A stretch of 10,451 nt of DNA from a virus (lineage: Duplodnaviria; Heunggongvirae; Uroviricota; Caudoviricetes): IMG/VR virus record IMGVR_UViG_2563366843_000006, one strand, 5' to 3'. Both the position numbers and the translations under genes were made by a program. Of this stretch, positions 601-8,924 are shown piece after piece. The stretch's first letter is position 1. Each line of letters starts with the position of its first letter. The notes beneath the pieces are model-generated. The model was not told where the DNA came from. It ran no database searches and was given only the letters and a program-made list of their open reading frames with translations.

Positions 601-627
601 TTAGCCAGGTAACACAGTGTTATGACA

Positions 628-653
628 GCCCGCCGGTTCAGGCGGGCTTTTTT
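628..653 (+). terminator. Rho-independent terminator downstream of lom
   Basis: Perfect 7-bp GC-rich stem GCCCGCC (628-634) / GGCGGGC (641-647) with loop GGTTCA, followed by TTTTTT (648-653). Confidence 0.65.
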
Positions 654-664
654 GTGGAGTGGAT

Positions 665-3040
665 ATGGCAGCAGTAAAAATCTCAGGTGTGCTGAAAGAT
701 GGTGCGGGAAAACCAATACAGAACTGCACTATTCAACTGAAGGCAAAGCGTAACAGCACCACGGTACTGGTGAACACGGTGGCCTCTGAAAATCCGGATG
801 AAGCCGGGCGTTACAGCATGGATGTTGAGTATGGCCAGTACAGCGTCATCCTGCTGGTTGAAGGTTTTCCGCCTTCACATGCCGGGACCATTACCGTCTA
901 TGAAGGCTCCAGACCAGGTACGCTGAATGATTTTCTCGGTGCCATGACGGAAGAGGATGTCATGCCGGAGGCATTGCGTCGTTTTGAGGCAATGGTGGAA
1001 GAAGTGGCACGCAACGCCGAAGCCGCCTCTCAGAGCGCAGCGGCGGCAAAGAAATCCGAAACTGCAGCGGCATCATCGAAGAACGCGGCGAAAACCTCAG
1101 AAACGAATGCAGCTAACAGCGCACAGGCGGCAGCGACCTCACAGACTGCATCGGCAAACTCCGCGACAGCAGCCAAAAAATCAGAAACCAATGCGAAAAA
1201 CAGCGAGACAGCCGCAAAGACGAGCGAAACCAACGCAAAGTCCAGCCAGACGGCAGCGAAAACCAGCGAAACGAATGCCAAAGCCAGTGAAACTGCGGCG
1301 AAAAACAGCCAGGATGCAGCGGCCCAAAGCGAGAGTGCCGCAGCTGGTTCTGCGACTTCAGCAGCTGGATCAGCAACTGCTGCGGCTAACAGCCAGAAAG
1401 CTGCGAAGACGAGTGAAACCAACGCAAAGTCCAGCCAGACGGCAGCGAAAACCAGCGAAACGAATGCCAAAGCCAGTGAAACTGCGGCGAAAAGCAGTCA
1501 GGATGCAGCAGCCGAAAGCGAGAGTGCTGCAGCTGGCTCTGCAAGCGCGGCGGCTGCTTCTGCCACTGCATCAGCCAACAGTCAAAAAGCTGCAAAAACC
1601 AGTGAAACCAACGCAAAGGCGAGCGAGACTGCGGCGGCTAACTCGGCGAAAGCATCCGCTGCAAGCCAGACGGCTGCAAAAGCAAGTGAAGACGCAGCCA
1701 GAGAGTATGCAAGCCAGGCTGCGGAGCCGTATAAACAAGTATTGCAGCCGCTTCCCGATGTGTGGATACCGTTTAACGATTCACTGGATATGATTACGGG
1801 CTTTTCGCCGTCATATAAAAAGATTGTTATTGGTGATGATGAAATAACGATGCCTGGCGATAAGGTTGTAAAGTTTAAACGCGCATCAAAAGCAACTTAC
1901 ATTAATAAATCTGGTGTGCTGACAGAGGCTGCCATTGACGAGCCACGGTTTGAACGTGATGGCCTGCTTATTGAGGGGCAAAGAACAAACTACATGCTCA
2001 ATTCGGAAAACCCTGCCAGTTGGGGGCGATCGTCAAATATGGATGTGCCCGAAACAGGGACGGATAGTTTTGGTTTTACCTATGGAAAGTTTGTCTGCAA
2101 CGATTCTCTGATTGGGCAAACCTCAGCCATTAATATGGCATCAATTGCTGCAACAAAGTCAGTTGATGTCTCAGGCGATAATAAACACGTGACAACCTCA
2201 TGTCGTTTTAAAACAGAACTGCAGGTAAGGTTGCGTATCCGGTTTGATAAATATGACGGTAGCGCAACAACTTTTCTTGGTGATGCGTATATTGATACAC
2301 AAACGCTTGAAATTAATATGACAGGCGGTGCTGCCTCAAGGATTACTGCGAGAGTCAGAAAGGACGAAGCTACCGGATGGATTTTTGCAGAGGCAACAAT
2401 TCAGGCAATTGATGGGGAGCTAAAAATAGGCTCTCAGATACAGTATTCTCCTAAGCAGAGCGGGGCAACCGTATCTGGTGACTATATTTATCTGGCCACC
2501 CCACAAGTAGAAGATGGGCCTTGTGTATCATCTTTTATTATATCAGGAGCGACGGCGGCGACCCGCGCAAGCGATATAGTTACAGTTCCAATTAAGAATA
2601 ATCTTTATAATCTTCCTTTTACGGTTCTTTGTGAGGTACATAAGAACTGGTATAAAACGCCAAATGCAGCGCCACGTGTTTTTGATACCGGCGGTCATCA
2701 AACCGGAGCGGCTATTATTCTTGGCTTCGGTCGTTCAACAGATTACGACGGATTTCCTTATTGCGATATTGGAGGAGCTAACAGACGGGTAAACGAAAAC
2801 GCATCGCTTGAAAAAATGGTTATGGGGATGCGTGTAAAGTCAGAGCAGTCTACGTGCTCAGTAAGTAACGGGCATATATCCAGCGAAACAAAAACCACAT
2901 GGTCCTGTATTCAGAACACCGCAATTATCCGTATTGGAGGCCAGACTACAGCCGGGTTACGTCATTTATTTGGTCATGTCAGGAATTTCAGAATATGGCA
3001 CAAGGCATTGACTGATGCTCAGGTGGGGGAGTCAATCTAA
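665..3040 (+). CDS. stf: Side tail fibre protein (lambda Stf-like N-terminal anchor, Ala/Ser/Thr-rich repetitive shaft, divergent C-terminal receptor-binding region)
   Basis: Long ORF (track 659-3040 from GTG). ATG at 665 is preferred because GGAG at 656-659 sits 5 nt upstream. N-terminus MAAVKISGVLKDGAGKPIQNCTIQLKAKRNSTTVLVNT... matches my recollection of lambda Stf. Central KTSETNAK-type repeats. The C-terminal ~430 aa is more AT-rich and ends ...LRHLFGHVRNFRIWHKALTDAQVGESI, reminiscent of a LamG/concanavalin-like lectin fold (tentative). Confidence 0.85.
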   Translation: MAAVKISGVLKDGAGKPIQNCTIQLKAKRNSTTVLVNTVASENPDEAGRYSMDVEYGQYSVILLVEGFPPSHAGTITVYEGSRPGTLNDFLGAMTEEDVMPEALRRFEAMVEEVARNAEAASQSAAAAKKSETAAASSKNAAKTSETNAANSAQAAATSQTASANSATAAKKSETNAKNSETAAKTSETNAKSSQTAAKTSETNAKASETAAKNSQDAAAQSESAAAGSATSAAGSATAAANSQKAAKTSETNAKSSQTAAKTSETNAKASETAAKSSQDAAAESESAAAGSASAAAASATASANSQKAAKTSETNAKASETAAANSAKASAASQTAAKASEDAAREYASQAAEPYKQVLQPLPDVWIPFNDSLDMITGFSPSYKKIVIGDDEITMPGDKVVKFKRASKATYINKSGVLTEAAIDEPRFERDGLLIEGQRTNYMLNSENPASWGRSSNMDVPETGTDSFGFTYGKFVCNDSLIGQTSAINMASIAATKSVDVSGDNKHVTTSCRFKTELQVRLRIRFDKYDGSATTFLGDAYIDTQTLEINMTGGAASRITARVRKDEATGWIFAEATIQAIDGELKIGSQIQYSPKQSGATVSGDYIYLATPQVEDGPCVSSFIISGATAATRASDIVTVPIKNNLYNLPFTVLCEVHKNWYKTPNAAPRVFDTGGHQTGAAIILGFGRSTDYDGFPYCDIGGANRRVNENASLEKMVMGMRVKSEQSTCSVSNGHISSETKTTWSCIQNTAIIRIGGQTTAGLRHLFGHVRNFRIWHKALTDAQVGESI
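1211..1623. repeat. In-frame tandem duplication inside stf, period 189 bp (63 aa), about 2.2 copies, embedded in a wider field of shorter KTSETNAK-coding repeats (about 1040-1690)
   Basis: Near-identical blocks: CAACGCAAAGTCCAGCCAGACGGCAGCGAAAACCAGCGAAACGAATGCCAAAGCCAGTGAAACTGCGGCGAAAA starts at 1231 and again at 1420; a third partial unit begins near 1610. Confidence 0.75.
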
Positions 3041-3321
3041 TGAAAGATTTAACACTCAAATTTGCCGACAGGGCCGACTTTTCGGCCTTTATGGATAGCA
3101 CTGGCTATTATGATGACGAGTCGATGCAGGATGATATTCTTATCGACGTGATAGGTAACGTGTACAAAGAAACCGGAGAACTGACTGAAGATGGCGAACC
3201 GGTATGTGTTAAGGAAGACGGATATTTTGTAAACGTGCGCATCATTAATGATTCGCAAATATCGTCATTATTCGATGAATACGTGGTTGCTGTTGAGCAT
3301 CAACTTCGTGGCTGGATGTGA
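3040..3321 (+). CDS. Hypothetical small acidic protein (93 aa), translationally coupled to stf; possibly tail-fibre associated
   Basis: ATG at 3040 overlaps the stf stop TAA (3038-3040) by 1 nt; GGGGGAG 8 nt upstream. Asp/Glu-rich, no TM segment. Function not recognisable by eye. Confidence 0.55.
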   Translation: MKDLTLKFADRADFSAFMDSTGYYDDESMQDDILIDVIGNVYKETGELTEDGEPVCVKEDGYFVNVRIINDSQISSLFDEYVVAVEHQLRGWM

Positions 3322-3330
3322 GGAAGAAAA

Positions 3331-4371
3331 ATGGCTACATCGACAGTAATTCCTGATGACATCAAAACGCTAAAATCCGACGTTAGCAAATTAAAAAACG
3401 ATCAAGGAAGCTACGCAACAAAATTATATGTAGACAGCAAAGATGAAATCGTTGGTGACTGGTCTGCTTCATGGTATCAGCAGGTATTGCCAACTAGCGG
3501 AGCTATATTTGGGAGAAAACTCCGCTCAACTCACAGGACGGCAGGTGTTGAGGATGCGTATTGCGAACTATACCTCAAAAAATGGATAGACAGTCCAGGT
3601 AACGCAATGGCGCGCCTTAACCTGAACGATAACGGGACAAACATTTGCTGGGACTTTACCAACCTTTATGGCGGTACGATGATTTTTCCCGGTGACAGCG
3701 GATACCTCAAAATGGGTAACTGCCTTATGTCATACAGCAAGCGTGGAAGTAGCGCGCTTATTAAATTTGATTACACCGACACATTACAGATCAAATATGC
3801 CAATCATGGGTCAACCATGACATTAAACACACAGGGAACCGCTTATGCTGGTGTTACTGCTCAATTGTGGGGCAACTCCAGCCGTCCTGTTGTTTATGAA
3901 GTCGGTGTTGATGGTGGCGCTTATATGTTCTATGCGCAGAAAAATACCGATAACACCTATATGTTAAGCGTTAATGGTGCATGTCATGCCACCGCATTTA
4001 ACCAGCATTCCGACCGGGATCTGAAAGACAACATTCAGGTGATCGATAATGCAACCGACCGCATCCGTAAAATGAACGGCTATACATACACGCTTAAAGA
4101 AAACGGTATGCCCTATGCTGGTGTCATTGCACAGGAAGCTCTGGAAGCAATCCCAGAAGTTGTAGGTTCCGCAATGAAATATCAGGACGGTGCGAGCGGA
4201 TCGGAAGGTGAAGAAGGTGAACGTTATTACACAGTAGATCATTCTGGTGTTACTGGCTTGCTTGTTCAGGTAGCCAGAGAGTCAGACGACAGGATAACAG
4301 CACTGGAAGAAGAAAACGCAGAATTAAGACAAAGATTATCTGCAATTGAGGCGGCGCTTGCGTCTAAATAA
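3331..4371 (+). CDS. Tail fibre/tailspike-like protein with C-terminal intramolecular chaperone auto-processing domain (peptidase S74-like)
   Basis: 346-aa ORF with AGGAAG SD 4 nt upstream. The C-terminal ~115 aa (SDRDLKDNIQVIDNATDRIRKMNGYTYTLKENGMPYAGVIAQEALEAIPEVV...YYTVDHSGVTGLLVQVARESDDRITALEEENAELRQRLSAIEAAL) matches the pattern of the chaperone domain of phage endosialidases and T5 L-shaped fibre pb1: Ser-Asp at the expected autocleavage point, a VIAQE...PE segment, and a terminal coiled coil. Confidence 0.8.
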   Translation: MATSTVIPDDIKTLKSDVSKLKNDQGSYATKLYVDSKDEIVGDWSASWYQQVLPTSGAIFGRKLRSTHRTAGVEDAYCELYLKKWIDSPGNAMARLNLNDNGTNICWDFTNLYGGTMIFPGDSGYLKMGNCLMSYSKRGSSALIKFDYTDTLQIKYANHGSTMTLNTQGTAYAGVTAQLWGNSSRPVVYEVGVDGGAYMFYAQKNTDNTYMLSVNGACHATAFNQHSDRDLKDNIQVIDNATDRIRKMNGYTYTLKENGMPYAGVIAQEALEAIPEVVGSAMKYQDGASGSEGEEGERYYTVDHSGVTGLLVQVARESDDRITALEEENAELRQRLSAIEAALASK

Positions 4372-4377
4372 TATTAA

Positions 4378-4400
4378 GGGGCCGAGTGCCCCGTTTTATT
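4378..4400 (+). terminator. Possible weak intrinsic terminator after the fibre-like gene
   Basis: GGGGC (4378-4382) / GCCCC (4388-4392) stem with 5-nt loop, then GTTTTATT. Short stem, so possibly only partial termination. Confidence 0.4.
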
Positions 4401-4413
4401 GGGTAGGATGAAA

Positions 4414-4701
4414 ATGGATATAACACCTTTCCTTCATGCGCTTTGTGCTGTGGCTGCGCAGCTACTGATTGGTCTTTTTACCGGAAACTGGGCTTACGGG
4501 GCGATAGCCGGTTGTACGTTCTTCATTGCTCGTGAACATACCCAGGCAGAATATCGCTGGATTGAAATGTTCGGGCATGGCAAGCGTATGAATATGCCGT
4601 GGTGGGGTGGTTTTGATCCACGCGTGTGGGATGTAGGAAGCCTTATGGATTTTTCTGTGCCGGTGGTGGCGTGTCTGCTGGTCTGGCTGTTTATCCGTTA
4701 A
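4414..4701 (+). CDS. Small predicted inner-membrane protein (about 96 aa), unknown function
   Basis: ORF in track (4399-4701 from TTG). ATG at 4414 preferred because AGGA at 4405-4408 sits 5 nt upstream. Hydrophobic segments FLHALCAVAAQLLIGLFTGNWAYGAIAGCTFFIA and SVPVVACLLVWLFI suggest 2-3 TM helices. Confidence 0.6.
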   Translation: MDITPFLHALCAVAAQLLIGLFTGNWAYGAIAGCTFFIAREHTQAEYRWIEMFGHGKRMNMPWWGGFDPRVWDVGSLMDFSVPVVACLLVWLFIR

Positions 4702-5068: not shown

Positions 5069-5157
5069 TTAAGATCAAAGACGTTTACATCTCGTACCTC
5101 ACAAGCAGCTTTTACTTGCTGAGGGCGGTAGCGTTTCTATTATTATCTCAAATCAAT

Positions 5158-6150
5158 ATGGATAATGTAATGAGTGAAACTAAACACATATCTGAAATGG
5201 CAGAAAGGGTGGCAAATAATTTATTCTCAATTTTTAAATGGAAAAGGAAGATTGCTTCCGATTTCAGTTGGGATTGTGTAAGCCCTGATGAACATGGAGG
5301 AAAAAAAGATCATCCGTCTGATTGCGTTTTTTATTACAGAGATCCCTATGATAATGAAGTTAAATATATTAATACTGATCTTAAGAGTTATGCGAAAGGC
5401 TCAATAACAAAAGAGCAAATTAATAAAGCAATCAGTTCTCTTTCCTATGCAACGAATTGCGCACCATATAATGATAATTGGAAAAGGTTATTTAAACCAG
5501 AAGGGAATTGGTCTGTAATAGGTATGCTGTTTGTTTATAATCATTGCGGTGAATATAATGGGGACTTTAATGAAATAGTTAAGGCGGTTGAAAATGATGT
5601 CAATCATTTGGATAATGAAAAAATGATATATATTTTCTCCCCAGATAGAATTAGAATATTAAATAGTATTGCTAATGATATCAATGTAATGATAGGGAAA
5701 GAAGAATTACCGTCTAAAAATCATTTTAGCTTCTTTCATCCCAATGAGATATTAACAAAAAATCATTTCAACCATGATTATTCTGAGCCAGCAACTATTA
5801 ATGTTCTTTCTTCACCTTGGATTATAATTAAGCATGCAGATTGTGAGAATGAAAAGGCAGGCTATTTAATATATTATACTAAAGATGGTTCAGAAGATGA
5901 CGAATTTGACTATTTTATTGATGCTCTAAGCTATTACCAAATAATCAATAATACAAGTAATGTCAGAATCAAATTAACAATAAAAAATGAATTTGCAGCA
6001 AGTAATCTTTTAAACTCAATTAGTAAATACTATCAGTCTCTCGGTCGTACCGAAAAAGAATCAATGCAAATCGCCAATACAATGGTAAAAGGTACTATTG
6101 ATTTGGTTACACCACAGTTTTCTGCTAATGAAATTGGAGTTTTACCATGA
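5158..6150 (+). CDS. Hypothetical protein A of AT-rich three-gene operon (about 331 aa); N-terminal region has a tentative PD-(D/E)xK nuclease-like motif arrangement
   Basis: Long ORF in a roughly 30% G+C region; track ORF 5116-6150 begins at TTG. First ATG is at 5158, alternative at 5170; neither has a strong SD. Stop TGA overlaps the start of gene B (ATGA at 6147-6150). Asn/Lys/Ile/Tyr-rich, no TM or signal peptide. Confidence 0.75.
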   Translation: MDNVMSETKHISEMAERVANNLFSIFKWKRKIASDFSWDCVSPDEHGGKKDHPSDCVFYYRDPYDNEVKYINTDLKSYAKGSITKEQINKAISSLSYATNCAPYNDNWKRLFKPEGNWSVIGMLFVYNHCGEYNGDFNEIVKAVENDVNHLDNEKMIYIFSPDRIRILNSIANDINVMIGKEELPSKNHFSFFHPNEILTKNHFNHDYSEPATINVLSSPWIIIKHADCENEKAGYLIYYTKDGSEDDEFDYFIDALSYYQIINNTSNVRIKLTIKNEFAASNLLNSISKYYQSLGRTEKESMQIANTMVKGTIDLVTPQFSANEIGVLP

Positions 6151-7253
6151 GTAATCCTGAGAAAAAATTTGGTCATAGTATTTACTACATGAACGATCAA
6201 AATATTAGGGATGGTTTACTAGCGCAGAAAGTTAAAGCATCACATTTGATAAAAATTTTAAAAGATCGCAACATTTTAGTATCACCTCTATCTTCAAAAG
6301 AAGAACTGATAAACATGTTAAAGTTTATCAGATTCGATTATTATGATTATGTTTATTTATCATCAATTCTTGCAAATCAAGATAAAAAAGAAAGTAAGTC
6401 AAGTATTGATATAGATAAGAAAGTCACTGCTAAGCAAATATTAAGTACGTTTGAGTCGATTAAAGGAGTGTTAGAAGCTCGTCAAATTACAGCCGAGGTT
6501 TCTAAACAAAACAGTAAAAAAATAACTATCAACTTTGAGTATGTTGAGTTTGATCATTCGAAACCACCTATGCGTCAAAAATCATTCCGTAAAGGGGTAG
6601 TTGAATGTGATATAACTGCTACAGGTGCGATGCTTAATTATCCAGCAAATAAAGTTGGGGCAATAATAAAAGACCATTTAATCACACAACTTTCCAAAAA
6701 GTTAGATACTGAATTGAAGCCAATCGAATTTGATTTTGAGAACTCCAGTGTTGCAACTAGAAATAATTTCTTCCTTAGTGTAATCAATAATGTTGAAAAG
6801 TATGAAGTATACGATGTTGTCACTGTGGCAGTTAAGAAGATAGAAGAGAAAAAAGGAAAGGAAAGCTCCTCGTCAGCGGATTCAGACAATGATTCGGTAG
6901 GGGAAGCATTTACTGGAGAAGTTAGAAACGCCATTCTACGCGGAAATCAGATTTTAACTTCAAAAGTATACAGTGGGTTAAATACAGGGAATTATTATAT
7001 TTATAAAATTACTTGGAAGATTAGAGAAATAATTCCGGGCTTGGGATCTGAACAATCTGATTGTTATACGGTTGAGATTGAGTTTAGTGATAAAGATAAG
7101 GCTAAAGGACTAAAGTATTGTGTTAAAACTGTTCAGCGATTCTCCTCAAAAAATAGACTGAATGTTACAACTGAAAATCCTTTAAAAAATGAGCAAGAAA
7201 AATTAGGAAAGCTCATTTATAAAACAGCCCTAGATGTCTATTCTAAAATATAA
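6147..7253 (+). CDS. Hypothetical protein B of AT-rich three-gene operon (368 aa); two regions separated by a Ser/Asp-rich acidic linker
   Basis: ATG at 6147 with GGAG SD at 6136-6139 (7-nt spacing), overlapping the gene A stop. No recognisable catalytic signature by eye; linker KKGKESSSSADSDNDSVGEAF at about 6850-6910. Confidence 0.8.
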   Translation: MSNPEKKFGHSIYYMNDQNIRDGLLAQKVKASHLIKILKDRNILVSPLSSKEELINMLKFIRFDYYDYVYLSSILANQDKKESKSSIDIDKKVTAKQILSTFESIKGVLEARQITAEVSKQNSKKITINFEYVEFDHSKPPMRQKSFRKGVVECDITATGAMLNYPANKVGAIIKDHLITQLSKKLDTELKPIEFDFENSSVATRNNFFLSVINNVEKYEVYDVVTVAVKKIEEKKGKESSSSADSDNDSVGEAFTGEVRNAILRGNQILTSKVYSGLNTGNYYIYKITWKIREIIPGLGSEQSDCYTVEIEFSDKDKAKGLKYCVKTVQRFSSKNRLNVTTENPLKNEQEKLGKLIYKTALDVYSKI

Positions 7254-7268
7254 ATGGGGGATGGCATT

Positions 7269-7946
7269 ATGGAAAAAAGAATCGTTTTTTATGATTTTGA
7301 AACTCCTTTTAATCAGGAGCAAATCAGCAAAAGATTGATTGAAAACCAATTTACAAAAGATGCGATCTCAGGTTTTAGTTTACAGAAAAATAATAGTACT
7401 GGGATTTACTTCCGACATATTAAAAAGATTATTAACATTGACGTTGTGTTAACACCTTTTGGTGAAGAATATGAAAATACCACAATCGCCTACGCTACCA
7501 ATGAGGTGAAAATAACTGATAAGTCTCTTCGTATAATTAACCCATCTAGAACACTTGCTCCCTTTCGAACAGATTTGGTGAAGTCTCTAGACTTTCAGTG
7601 CACTATAAGTAATAAGAATATAGAATTAAGTCCACTATTGTTATCTTTGAGAGAAAGGAATGTTAATATCAACTTGACTGATATTGAACTTACTACATAT
7701 GACCTCTTTAAGGATTCTCGAGTTAAAATGGTCATTTCTTCTAATAGTGATTTAATTGGCAAAGCAGAATCCTATTTAAATAATGTTAAGTCCAACATCA
7801 CAAAAATAGGTTTTTCTTTATTGTTTAATGGTGATTATTATTTTGTTGAAATTGGTTGTAAAGGTTCATTGAAAATATCAGGGGATTTAATAGAGGATAA
7901 TTTGGAATATTATATTATTAATGAAATTCTATCTTTAGATGCTTAA
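7269..7946 (+). CDS. Hypothetical protein C of AT-rich three-gene operon (225 aa from ATG 7269; 230 aa if ATG 7254 is used)
   Basis: ORF directly abutting the gene B stop (TAA 7251-7253). GGGGGA at 7256-7261 is 7 nt upstream of ATG 7269, favouring that start. AT-rich codon usage like A and B; followed by a terminator at 8027-8057. Confidence 0.75.
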   Translation: MEKRIVFYDFETPFNQEQISKRLIENQFTKDAISGFSLQKNNSTGIYFRHIKKIINIDVVLTPFGEEYENTTIAYATNEVKITDKSLRIINPSRTLAPFRTDLVKSLDFQCTISNKNIELSPLLLSLRERNVNINLTDIELTTYDLFKDSRVKMVISSNSDLIGKAESYLNNVKSNITKIGFSLLFNGDYYFVEIGCKGSLKISGDLIEDNLEYYIINEILSLDA

Positions 7947-8762: not shown

Positions 8763-8924
8763 CTGCGCCATATGGGCTGGACTGAAGCCGCAGACTTGAT
8801 TGTTAAAGGTATGGAAGGCGCAATCAATGCGAAGACCGTAACCTATGATTTCGAACGTCTGATGGAAGGTGCTAAACTGCTGAAATGCAGCGAGTTTGGT
8901 GATGCGATCATCAAGAACATGTAA
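8763..8924 (+). pseudogene. icd: Orphan 3' fragment of isocitrate dehydrogenase gene (last ~54 codons, icdC-like), marking the prophage/host junction (attR side)
   Basis: In-frame translation [53 protein letters not shown] matches my recollection of the E. coli Icd C-terminus. No icd sequence upstream, where unrelated AT-rich DNA begins at about 8760. Followed by a strong terminator. Confidence 0.85.

Follow-up and report, generated by a model that had tools for sequence, protein, structure and literature searches.

A probable self-maturing distal subunit of a two-part side tail fibre in a temperate prophage

In the Tequintavirus IrisVonRoten (Bas32), the proximal fibre Gp22, with a galectin-like C-terminal domain, is accompanied by the small ORF Gp23 (PMC11990801) and by Gp24, a distal T-shaped fibre featuring an intramolecular chaperone and two predicted receptor-binding domains (Humolli et al. 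2025, PMC11990801); AlphaFold-Multimer places Gp24 on the proximal fibre, a prediction rather than an experimental structure (PMC11990801). Branched lateral fibres have also been described for DT57C and DT571/2, built from LtfA and LtfB, and for phiEco32, built from gp14 and gp15 (Golomidova 2016, PMC4728585; Ayala 2023, PMC10713586). In the single-chain fibre pb1 of T5, the chaperone is auto-cleaved, unmasking the receptor-binding tip, and its catalytic pair has been experimentally defined as Ser1264/Lys1269 (PMC4690869).

The locus considered here lies in a stretch of 10,451 nucleotides from a Caudoviricetes virus (IMG/VR record IMGVR_UViG_2563366843_000006), referred to as the window, where a stf-like gene, a 93-aa acidic ORF (orf93) and a fibre gene with a peptidase S74 domain follow one another on the + strand. 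The S74 gene is a real but ordinary prophage tail-fibre gene, widespread and already annotated, and its 346-aa product is probably a receptor-binding subunit that matures itself and forms the distal part of a two-part side tail fibre.

Architecture of the S74 fibre protein

The S74 fibre ORF (3331-4371, + strand; 346 aa) starts with an ATG located 6 nt downstream of a Shine-Dalgarno sequence (GAGGA, 3320..3324, + strand) that was read directly from the sequence and overlaps the orf93 stop codon. In a Pfam search, Peptidase_S74 (Pfam accession: PF13884) matches aa 227-278 of the product with an E-value of 4.7e-14 and 52.8 bits, against a curated gathering score of 22, with profile positions 1-57 of 58 covered; the match is far above chance level and confirms the S74-type chaperone domain that an earlier, sequence-only reading of the window had claimed and had proposed to check by this profile search. 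The domain forms the last 120 aa of the product (aa 227-346; 4009..4371 with the stop codon, + strand) and is the best-conserved part of the family, with a mean identity of 81%. It opens with the motif S227-D-R-D-L-K232-D-N-I, followed by GVIAQEALEAIPEVV at 264-278 and then by a long C-terminal helix with a heptad-like segment (LEEENAELRQRL) conserved in the family alignment; the SD..LK..I and VIAQE motifs and the C-terminal coiled coil noticed in that reading are thus all present. The spacing of Ser227 and Lys232 (S-x4-K) is the same as that of the catalytic pair of T5 pb1, and alignments of divergent homologues show both residues to be invariant or conserved to at least 90%. An AF2 monomer model from a 26-sequence alignment, too poor for a fold search (mean pLDDT 54), places the C-terminal helix at residues 304-344, with block-mean pLDDT of 61-89 from residue 311 and values below 50 for residues 304-310. 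Searched against the PDB as a single sequence, the fibre finds only S16 gp37 (PDB accession: 6F45), matched by the S74 domain, to which the family profile adds repeats of T4 gp34.

Apart from the chaperone profile, the Pfam search returned no domain in aa 1-226, and the Gly/Thr/Tyr richness previously ascribed to this part amounts to a mild enrichment only (G 9.3%, T 8.8%, S 8.4%, Y 6.6%). An N-terminal anchor conserved in the family (aa 1-19, MATSTVIPDDIKTLKSDVS; 3331..3387, + strand) runs into a short coiled-coil neck, with a helix at residues 10-26 in the low-confidence AF2 model. Products of 234-351 aa that differ in their bodies all have the anchor residues M1, T3, T5, I7, P8, D10, I11, L14, K15, D17 and S19, and in five phage lineages the motif MxTxTxIPxDIxxLK opens the third-gene products, which are 224-586 aa long. 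The beta-rich body (aa 46-168; 3466..3834, + strand), presumed to be the receptor-binding region, has the lowest identity in the family (pairwise mean 44%, minimum 12%). It is followed by a conserved, putative knob or shaft repeat (WGNSSRPVVYEVG...FYAQKN...VNG; aa 169-226; 3835..4008, + strand) that ends at the predicted cleavage site between His226 and Ser227 and contains the residues W180, G181 and R185, invariant in the family alignment; over aa 169-222 the family profile matches the P-domain repeat of T4 gp34 (PDB accessions: 4UXE, E 6.4e-8; 5NXF and 5NXH, about 1e-7).

Judged by established S74 biology, three 346-aa chains would form a trimer, guided by their own C-terminal S74 domains; in the correctly folded trimer each chain would cleave itself at the His226/Ser227 bond, with Lys232 activating Ser227, and the 120-aa chaperone would be released. 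Left behind would be a short trimeric stub (3 x 226 aa, each chain about 25 kDa) made up of the N-terminal anchor, the short coiled-coil neck, the hypervariable beta-rich body and the gp34-like knob. Comparative data suggest that the MxTxTxIPxDIxxLK anchor would fix this stub to the C-terminal module of Stf, an attachment in which orf93 may take part, and the side fibres would then present two carbohydrate- or receptor-binding modules, namely the lectin-like domain of Stf and, distally, the exchangeable stub.

Spread, selection and exchange of the fibre cassette

The 346-aa product matches PHROG 4563, a phage tail-fibre PHROG, end to end, and is 97-99% identical to annotated tail-fibre genes of Tritos, 2G7b, HannyBb and PhiR63_1. 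The gene is found in about 512 of 5,426 complete E. coli genomes, with a reading frame that is intact (345-347 aa) in most prophage loci examined. The arrangement is not peculiar to this prophage; the module is common and has been annotated before. Residues ~150-340 are similar to the C-termini of tail-fibre proteins 500-1,500 aa long, as would be expected if the ORF were a non-functional remnant, derived by recombination from the 3' part of a longer tail-fibre gene; this is almost certainly not the case, given the gene's own strong Shine-Dalgarno sequence and ATG, a specific conserved N-terminus absent from the long tail-fibre proteins, a whole-gene dN/dS of 0.13-0.39, indicative of purifying selection, and full-length copies in most prophage loci and in virulent phages, with at least 80% of the gene present in 489 E. 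coli records (512 genomes).

All third-gene products examined share a short anchor and the chaperone domain as constant ends, between which the body is swapped in a cassette-like manner. In the same gene pairs, dS is ~2 (saturated) in the body versus 0.01-0.02 in the chaperone domain, a mosaic divergence typical of receptor-binding proteins. Exchange also involves a larger cassette, composed of the C-terminal ~430 aa of Stf, orf93 and the S74 fibre, which is found in virulent Nonagvirus, Drexlerviridae and T5-like phages as well, and which has moved as a unit into a virulent Nonagvirus (92-98% protein identity). The three-gene order occurs in T1-like and 9g-like phages, and in T5-like phages it fills the only lateral-fibre locus, directly after the collar protein. 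The window, IrisVonRoten, HMD-P4, T5_ev219, JenP1, JenP2, ESCO3 and tonn all have a proximal fibre gene tightly followed by an ORF of ~92 aa and then by a gene for an anchor-bearing fibre with its own intramolecular chaperone; the distal types of 346 aa and 234 aa have been reshuffled among at least three variants of the Stf C-terminus, with the anchor and orf93 constant. A proteomic study of virions of AKFV33, which has a homologue, identified in the major gel bands no fibre other than the proximal one, and has no bearing on the distal protein.

The sequence-only reading had suggested a second fibre-type protein, possibly docking on Stf. Docking onto the Stf module is indeed favoured by comparative evidence, because the anchor is conserved, the cassette is co-transferred between unrelated lineages and the three products are homologous to IrisVonRoten Gp22, Gp23 and Gp24. 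The lineages that carry the third gene differ in their tail tips and share only the Stf C-terminal module and orf93; the anchor would therefore have to bind one of these. Several independent fibre sets are common among phages, and the S74 product might accordingly be an independent short fibre or adhesin seated on the tail tip or baseplate rather than on Stf and orf93. This is very unlikely, however, since the anchor is conserved across lambda-like, T1-like, 9g-like, Dhillonvirus and T5-like phages despite their differing tail tips, the anchor-motif gene directly follows an orf93 homologue and a Stf-type C-terminal module in every record checked, the cassette occupies a single lateral-fibre locus in the T5-like phages, and in DT57C the first fibre protein alone resembles the T5 attachment region, and only at its N-terminus (PMC10713586).

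The proximal fibre, orf93 and the position of tfa

The stf-like proximal side-tail-fibre gene (659..3040, + strand) encodes 793 aa when read from GTG 659, with ATG 665 rather than GTG 659 the likely true start. Its product runs from an N-terminal domain for tail attachment through a repeat shaft rich in Ala/Ser/Thr to a lectin-like C-terminal globular module of ~430 aa, and matches phage_tail_N (Pfam accession: PF08400; E 1.3e-66), PHROG 1419 (end to end), the NCBIfam model GTA_spike_fiber (NF048003; aa 437-637, E 8e-14) and a PDB entry named 'tail fiber protein' (PDB accession: 9E7M; aa 5-97, E 1.4e-49). A comparison of phages with and without the third gene found no sequence feature of Stf that follows its presence. 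The segment 'IGDDEITMPGDKxVKFKRAS', invariant in six third-gene-bearing phages and different in phage 21, was considered as a docking site and rejected, as it is also present in many phage 21-type loci without a third gene.

The S74 gene had been described as lying 3' of stf, where it would replace the chaperone gene tfa. The gene directly 3' of stf is orf93, however, and the S74 gene is third. That the window lacks a Tfa-like gene was upheld: none of its eight main products has a Tfa-type Pfam match, orf93 and the S74 protein have no Tfa/gp38-type (Caudo_TAP-type) match in Pfam, NCBIfam or PHROG, and tblastn of the window with the Tfa remnants that persist further downstream in sister phages 2G7b, ev243 and PhiR49_1 gave chance-level matches only. 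Of the proposed replacement, the gene position holds and the chaperone function does not. A trans-acting assembly chaperone for Stf, later discarded and not part of the virion, is an unlikely identity for the third-gene product, although the gene occupies the place of lambda tfa and homologues in KurtStettler, PeterMerian, HMD-P4 and ESCO3 are annotated 'putative lateral tail fiber chaperone' or 'endosialidase chaperone'. Variants of 224-234 aa, with the S74 domain starting at residue 99-116 and a mature part of only about 100-115 aa, would also suit such a chaperone, having almost no space for a receptor-binding domain; that this is little for such a domain, and that some annotators name the homologues lateral tail fibre chaperones, both speak against a distal subunit. 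In T5 pb1, on the other hand, and in the K1F endosialidase as cited there, the fibre is assisted in cis by its own S74 domain, which is cleaved off (PMC4690869). Since an intramolecular chaperone works on its own chain, it cannot take over from a chaperone that acts on Stf in trans; the domain serves its own protein only and is no stand-in for Tfa. A Stf of this kind, with orf92 and no third gene, is found in phage 21-type and ev243-type phages, and since the phage 21-type phages work without it, the third gene is dispensable for building Stf. The hypervariable body, swapped as a cassette as in receptor-binding proteins, and the IrisVonRoten Gp24 homologue with its two predicted receptor-binding domains likewise argue for a distal subunit over a trans-acting chaperone.

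Just 3' of the fibre gene, a G+C-rich hairpin (4378..4392, + strand), found by a consensus scan only, resembles a weak terminator and is a candidate for one. The small membrane-protein ORF at 4399..4701 (+ strand; PHROG 1443, E 1.6e-57) belongs to a family that ends the fibre module in lambdoid phages, with or without the S74 gene; the homologue in phage 21, according to its annotation a membrane protein with 2 TMDs, directly follows orf92.

The ATG of orf93 (3040..3321, + strand) shares a TAATG overlap with the stf stop codon and its product has a pI of 4.05 (21 D+E versus 7 K+R), so that the ORF is both translationally coupled and acidic, as had been noticed. The protein matches PHROG 1361 (E 7e-46) and has no match in Pfam, NCBIfam, PADLOC or the PDB, and its AF2 model (mean pLDDT 46) is too poor for a fold search. 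Homologues lie directly 3' of the fibre gene in lambdoid, T1-like, 9g-like, T5-like and Dhillonvirus phages. The family comprises only 50 clusters in 1.8 billion protein representatives, stand-alone proteins of roughly 90-125 aa with the exception of two long proteins matched in several stretches, apparently through low-complexity sequence; HMD-P4 orf91, searched against IMG/VR, gave no match. With or without the third gene, orf93 is always tied to the Stf C-terminal domain, which suggests a conserved companion of that module, putatively an assembly chaperone, accessory or adaptor.

As a true adaptor, orf93 would sit on the Stf C-terminal module and present a site to which the distal-fibre anchor binds, a possible but doubtful role. 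It is coupled to stf and immediately 5' of the fibre gene, stays at least 94% identical in lambdoid prophages while the Stf lectin module and the distal fibre type on either side are shuffled, and retains 21 invariant residues across lineages with only 37-54% identity; a conserved segment between two variable cassettes is, however, equally explained as a recombination linker. Moreover, orf92/orf93 is kept in phage 21-type and ev243-type phages without a distal fibre, no Rosetta-stone fusion of orf93 to a fibre protein occurs among the 1.8 billion representatives, and the residues separating bearers from non-bearers of the third gene are confined to conservative I/L/V-type columns, uninformative given the phylogenetically narrow non-bearer set. 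The adaptor role proposed in the sequence-only reading is therefore neither borne out nor refuted. A role as adaptor only is unsupported, because orf93 also occurs without the third gene (phage 21), and orf93 more likely serves the C-terminal domain of Stf, as a dedicated assembly factor or an accessory, than it acts purely as an adaptor. It might also be a universal coupler on the lectin-like C-terminal module of Stf-type fibres, accepting the 15-residue MxTxTxIPxDIxxLK anchor; if so, it would provide a plug-and-play socket for exchangeable self-maturing distal fibres in five phage lineages.

With the S74 product as the distal subunit, the annotation of the window changes to a side fibre that is probably made of two proteins, possibly three, and carries two sugar- or receptor-binding modules, with the S74 gene encoding its exchangeable tip and no substitute for Tfa. 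The anchor and chaperone domain around a swappable body, together with the constant orf93, would form natural splice points that could serve host-range engineering of lambdoid particles and of T5-, T1- and 9g-like phages.

Comparison with described fibre systems

With lambda Stf-Tfa and T4 gp37-gp38, the likeness is one of genomic position 3' of the side-tail-fibre gene; those chaperones act in trans, whereas the distal fibre of the window would have its folding help built in, in cis. A sialidase catalytic domain of the endosialidase K1F type was not found by Pfam upstream of the chaperone in the S74 fibre. T5 pb1 (PDB accessions: 4UW7, 4UW8) has in common with the S74 fibre the C-terminal S74 intramolecular chaperone and its Ser-x4-Lys arrangement, direct similarity falling below threshold in the PDB search; pb1 is one chain of 1,396 aa with its own tail-attachment N-terminus, whereas the window divides the fibre among a proximal protein, a small ORF and a distal protein of 346 aa.

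At the genetic level, the LtfA/LtfB-type fibres are the precedent for virions into which a second fibre protein is incorporated solely through the first. Their docking system is different: the N-terminus of phiEco32 gp15 (MARELMPKSGIMMPHVVV...), an LtfB-type anchor, is unrelated to the anchor of the window, Stf has no similarity to phiEco32 gp14 (E 0.37), and homology of the anchor to the docking segment of phiEco32 gp15 or DT57C LtfB was rejected, none having been found. The consecutive gene numbers of DT57C LtfB (gp107) and LtfA (gp108), taken alone, suggest that no small ORF lies between them.

IrisVonRoten differs from the window in that Gp24, at 574 aa, carries two receptor-binding domains, where the 346-aa fibre has a single, unrelated and smaller stub; its fibre is attached via the T5 collar, that of the window to a lambdoid tail via PF08400, and the host element here is, unlike IrisVonRoten, a temperate prophage. 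The three-gene order and its coupling are the same in both. In BLASTP comparisons, Stf is 52% identical to Gp22 over aa 115-793 (663 bits), with higher identity over the C-terminal ~430 aa, orf93 is 38% identical to Gp23 (E 2e-25), and the S74 fibre matches the intramolecular chaperone of Gp24 with an E-value of 2e-6, with 10 of 17 anchor residues identical; the window fibre (MVTKTVIPTDITKLK) and Gp24 (MATSTVIPDDIKTLK) thus have an N-terminal anchor and an S74 domain in common.

The S74 chaperone domain and its family

The 346-aa product of the gene at 3331-4371 (+) matches Pfam PF13884 (Peptidase_S74, 'chaperone of endosialidase') over residues 227-278, scoring 52.8 bits (cut-off 22; E 4.7e-14); the sequence-only reading thus correctly spotted a genuine S74-type fibre gene, and all the features it described are present on re-examination. 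The domain begins S227-DRDL-K232, with both S227 and K232 kept in alignments of divergent homologues. The Ser-x4-Lys spacing is identical to that of T5 pb1, where Lys1269 activates the scissile, catalytic Ser1264 and the chain is cut at Thr1263|Ser1264 (PMC4690869). The predicted mature part comprises 226 aa (24.9 kDa) and the predicted released chaperone 120 aa (13.1 kDa). The family profile ties the chaperone domain to gp37 of phage S16 (PDB 6F45), and residues 169-222 (pattern WGxxxRxxVfEvG..FYaQkN..vNG) to the P-domain repeats of T4 gp34 (PDB 4UXE, E 6e-8).

The gene is a member of a widespread, previously annotated family, for whose architecture a homologous model has been published. Its product aligns over all 346 positions with PHROG 4563 ('tail fiber protein'; E 2e-219); the 90%-identity cluster, with the name 'tail fiber domain-containing protein', contains 2,132 sequences; phages Tritos, PhiR63_1, 2G7b and HannyBb encode products with 97-99% protein identity; and at least 80% of the gene is present in 512 of 5,426 complete Escherichia coli genomes.

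A three-gene cassette in a lambdoid prophage

The window spans the right arm of a lambdoid prophage integrated at E. coli icd, in which lom (1-600) is followed by an stf-like gene (659-3040), a 93-aa ORF (orf93, 3040-3321) and the S74 gene. A 50-aa ORF at 8772-8924 (+), a second copy of the C-terminal end of isocitrate dehydrogenase, marks the right-hand attachment site left by integration of the phage 21/e14 type at icd, beyond which lie the host genes iraM, ymgK/L and ycgX. Between lom and stf, a strong terminator-like hairpin at 627-648 (+), with an 8-bp stem of which seven pairs are G-C, precedes a T-run, so the fibre cassette may need read-through, antitermination or its own promoter. The stf shaft consists of Ala/Ser/Thr-rich repeats with SETNAKxSxTAAKT units, which cause a marked AT-skew peak; long ORFs in its other frames, including overlapping minus-strand ones (one example being of 278 aa, 957-1793 (+)), were rejected as repeat artefacts.

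The fibre module of lambdoids, with or without an S74 gene, ends in a membrane ORF of ~97-100 aa (PHROG 1443; here 4399-4701 (+)) that is missing from cassette-bearing virulent phages and may have a lysogeny-related or exclusion function. Further downstream, three cargo genes of 29-34% GC (5116-7946 (+)) lie before the icd remnant; their products match the PADLOC candidate-defence models PDLC03004, PDLC03005 and PDLC03006 (Hp1/Hp2/Hp3; E 8e-61, 1e-27 and 4e-13), with no significant match in Pfam or NCBIfam. The corresponding slot of strain C4 holds an Avs2 gene, for which reason this prophage end looks like a defence hotspot.

A long fibre protein, a ~92-aa ORF and an S74 protein, always third, form a fixed trio in lambdoids, Nonagvirus (ESCO3, JenP1, JenP2), Drexlerviridae and T5-like phages, in the last of which it fills the lateral-fibre locus directly after the collar protein. 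The last ~430 aa of the long fibre protein comprise a conserved junction (PLPDVWIPFNDSLDM...) and a lectin-like globular module, matched in Stf by NCBIfam GTA_spike_fiber at residues 437-637. The ESCO3 trio is the lambdoid version with hardly any change: its Stf C-terminal module is nearly identical and its fibre 92% identical up to residue 333. The three parts thus travel together between unrelated phages.

No Tfa-like gene is present in the window, as first noted, nor was a Tfa remnant found there; the proposal that the S74 gene replaces tfa fails where function is concerned, because the S74 domain acts in cis, on the chain that carries it. That the third-gene product is a trans-acting chaperone for Stf is unlikely, even though its gene takes the place of lambda tfa. 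Fragments of lambda-type Tfa genes are kept a few kb downstream of the cassette in the sister phages 2G7b (L001:11027-11325), ev243 (L151:5500-5805) and PhiR49_1 (L006:6883-7017), which suggests that an ancestral stf-tfa distal end gave way to the cassette.

Constant ends and an exchanged body

Third-gene products range from 224 to 586 aa and have in common only the C-terminal S74 domain and an N-terminal anchor, M-[AVT]-T-x-T-x-I-P-x-D-I-x-x-L-K, continued by heptad-like repeats that vary in number. Across the 346-aa family, conservation peaks in the chaperone core (81% identity) and is lowest in the body, residues 46-168 (mean 44%, minimum 12%). Several alleles have a body with saturated dS (about 2) beside a chaperone domain that has hardly changed (dS 0.01-0.02), which shows that recombination between constant ends has replaced the body. 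Whole-gene pairwise dN/dS is 0.13-0.39, and it is highly improbable that the ORF is a gene remnant. In short alleles of 224-234 aa (comparison loci L006:4792-5496, L007:4792-5496 and L149:4292-4966), the S74 domain starts at residue 99-116; their predicted mature product would consist of the anchor, the coiled coil and only some 50 residues more.

The small ORF and the proposed joint with Stf

The 93-aa ORF is acidic, as described (pI 4.05); it starts at an ATG that shares bases with the stop codon of stf, and its own stop codon is overlapped by the GAGGA Shine-Dalgarno of the S74 gene. Its family (PHROG 1361) is a small, restricted one, for which 1.8 billion representatives yield 50 clusters at 50% identity, and the protein always stands alone, except for two multi-stretch, apparently low-complexity matches in long proteins. 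Lambdoids of the phage 21 and ev243 types carry a Stf of this kind together with the small ORF but lack the third gene, which marks the latter as an optional addition and gives the small ORF a role independent of it; comparison of Stf and the small ORF for features tracking third-gene presence found none. The most economical suggestion is that the small ORF folds or stabilises the Stf C-terminal module, and its proposed role as an adaptor is doubtful. In rV5-like JeffSchatz (Vequintavirinae; L153:4001-5022), a divergent 110-aa relative follows a very large lateral-fibre gene, and the 196-aa product of the gene after it has neither anchor nor S74 domain; the small ORF can therefore pair with other partners.

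The phage lineages bearing the anchor differ in their tail tips and share the Stf C-terminal module and small ORF, which the anchor gene directly follows at every locus fetched, and in 20 of the 20 records found in both the anchor and orf93 match lists; an independently attached fibre is rather improbable. In E. coli prophages, distal types of 346 and 234 aa are paired with three or more Stf C-terminal variants, while identity in the anchor and small ORF never falls below 94%; this speaks for a modular fibre in two parts that meet at a conserved joint. Docking on the Stf module, first raised as a possibility, is favoured to that extent, with either Stf or the small ORF as candidate partner of the anchor; single-chain structure predictions were uninformative. 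The S74 product is most likely a self-maturing distal receptor-binding subunit, whose N-terminal anchor would hold it to the module of Stf and orf93.

Branched fibres of DT57C (LtfA/LtfB) and phiEco32 (gp14/gp15) offer a functional analogy only, their docking segment being unrelated to the anchor described here. Each protein of the trio has its homologue in phage IrisVonRoten (Gp22, Gp23 and Gp24, respectively), for which published AlphaFold-Multimer models seat the chaperone-bearing distal Gp24 on a proximal fibre whose C-terminal protruding domain, the counterpart of the Stf lectin-like module, is termed galectin-like (PMC11990801).
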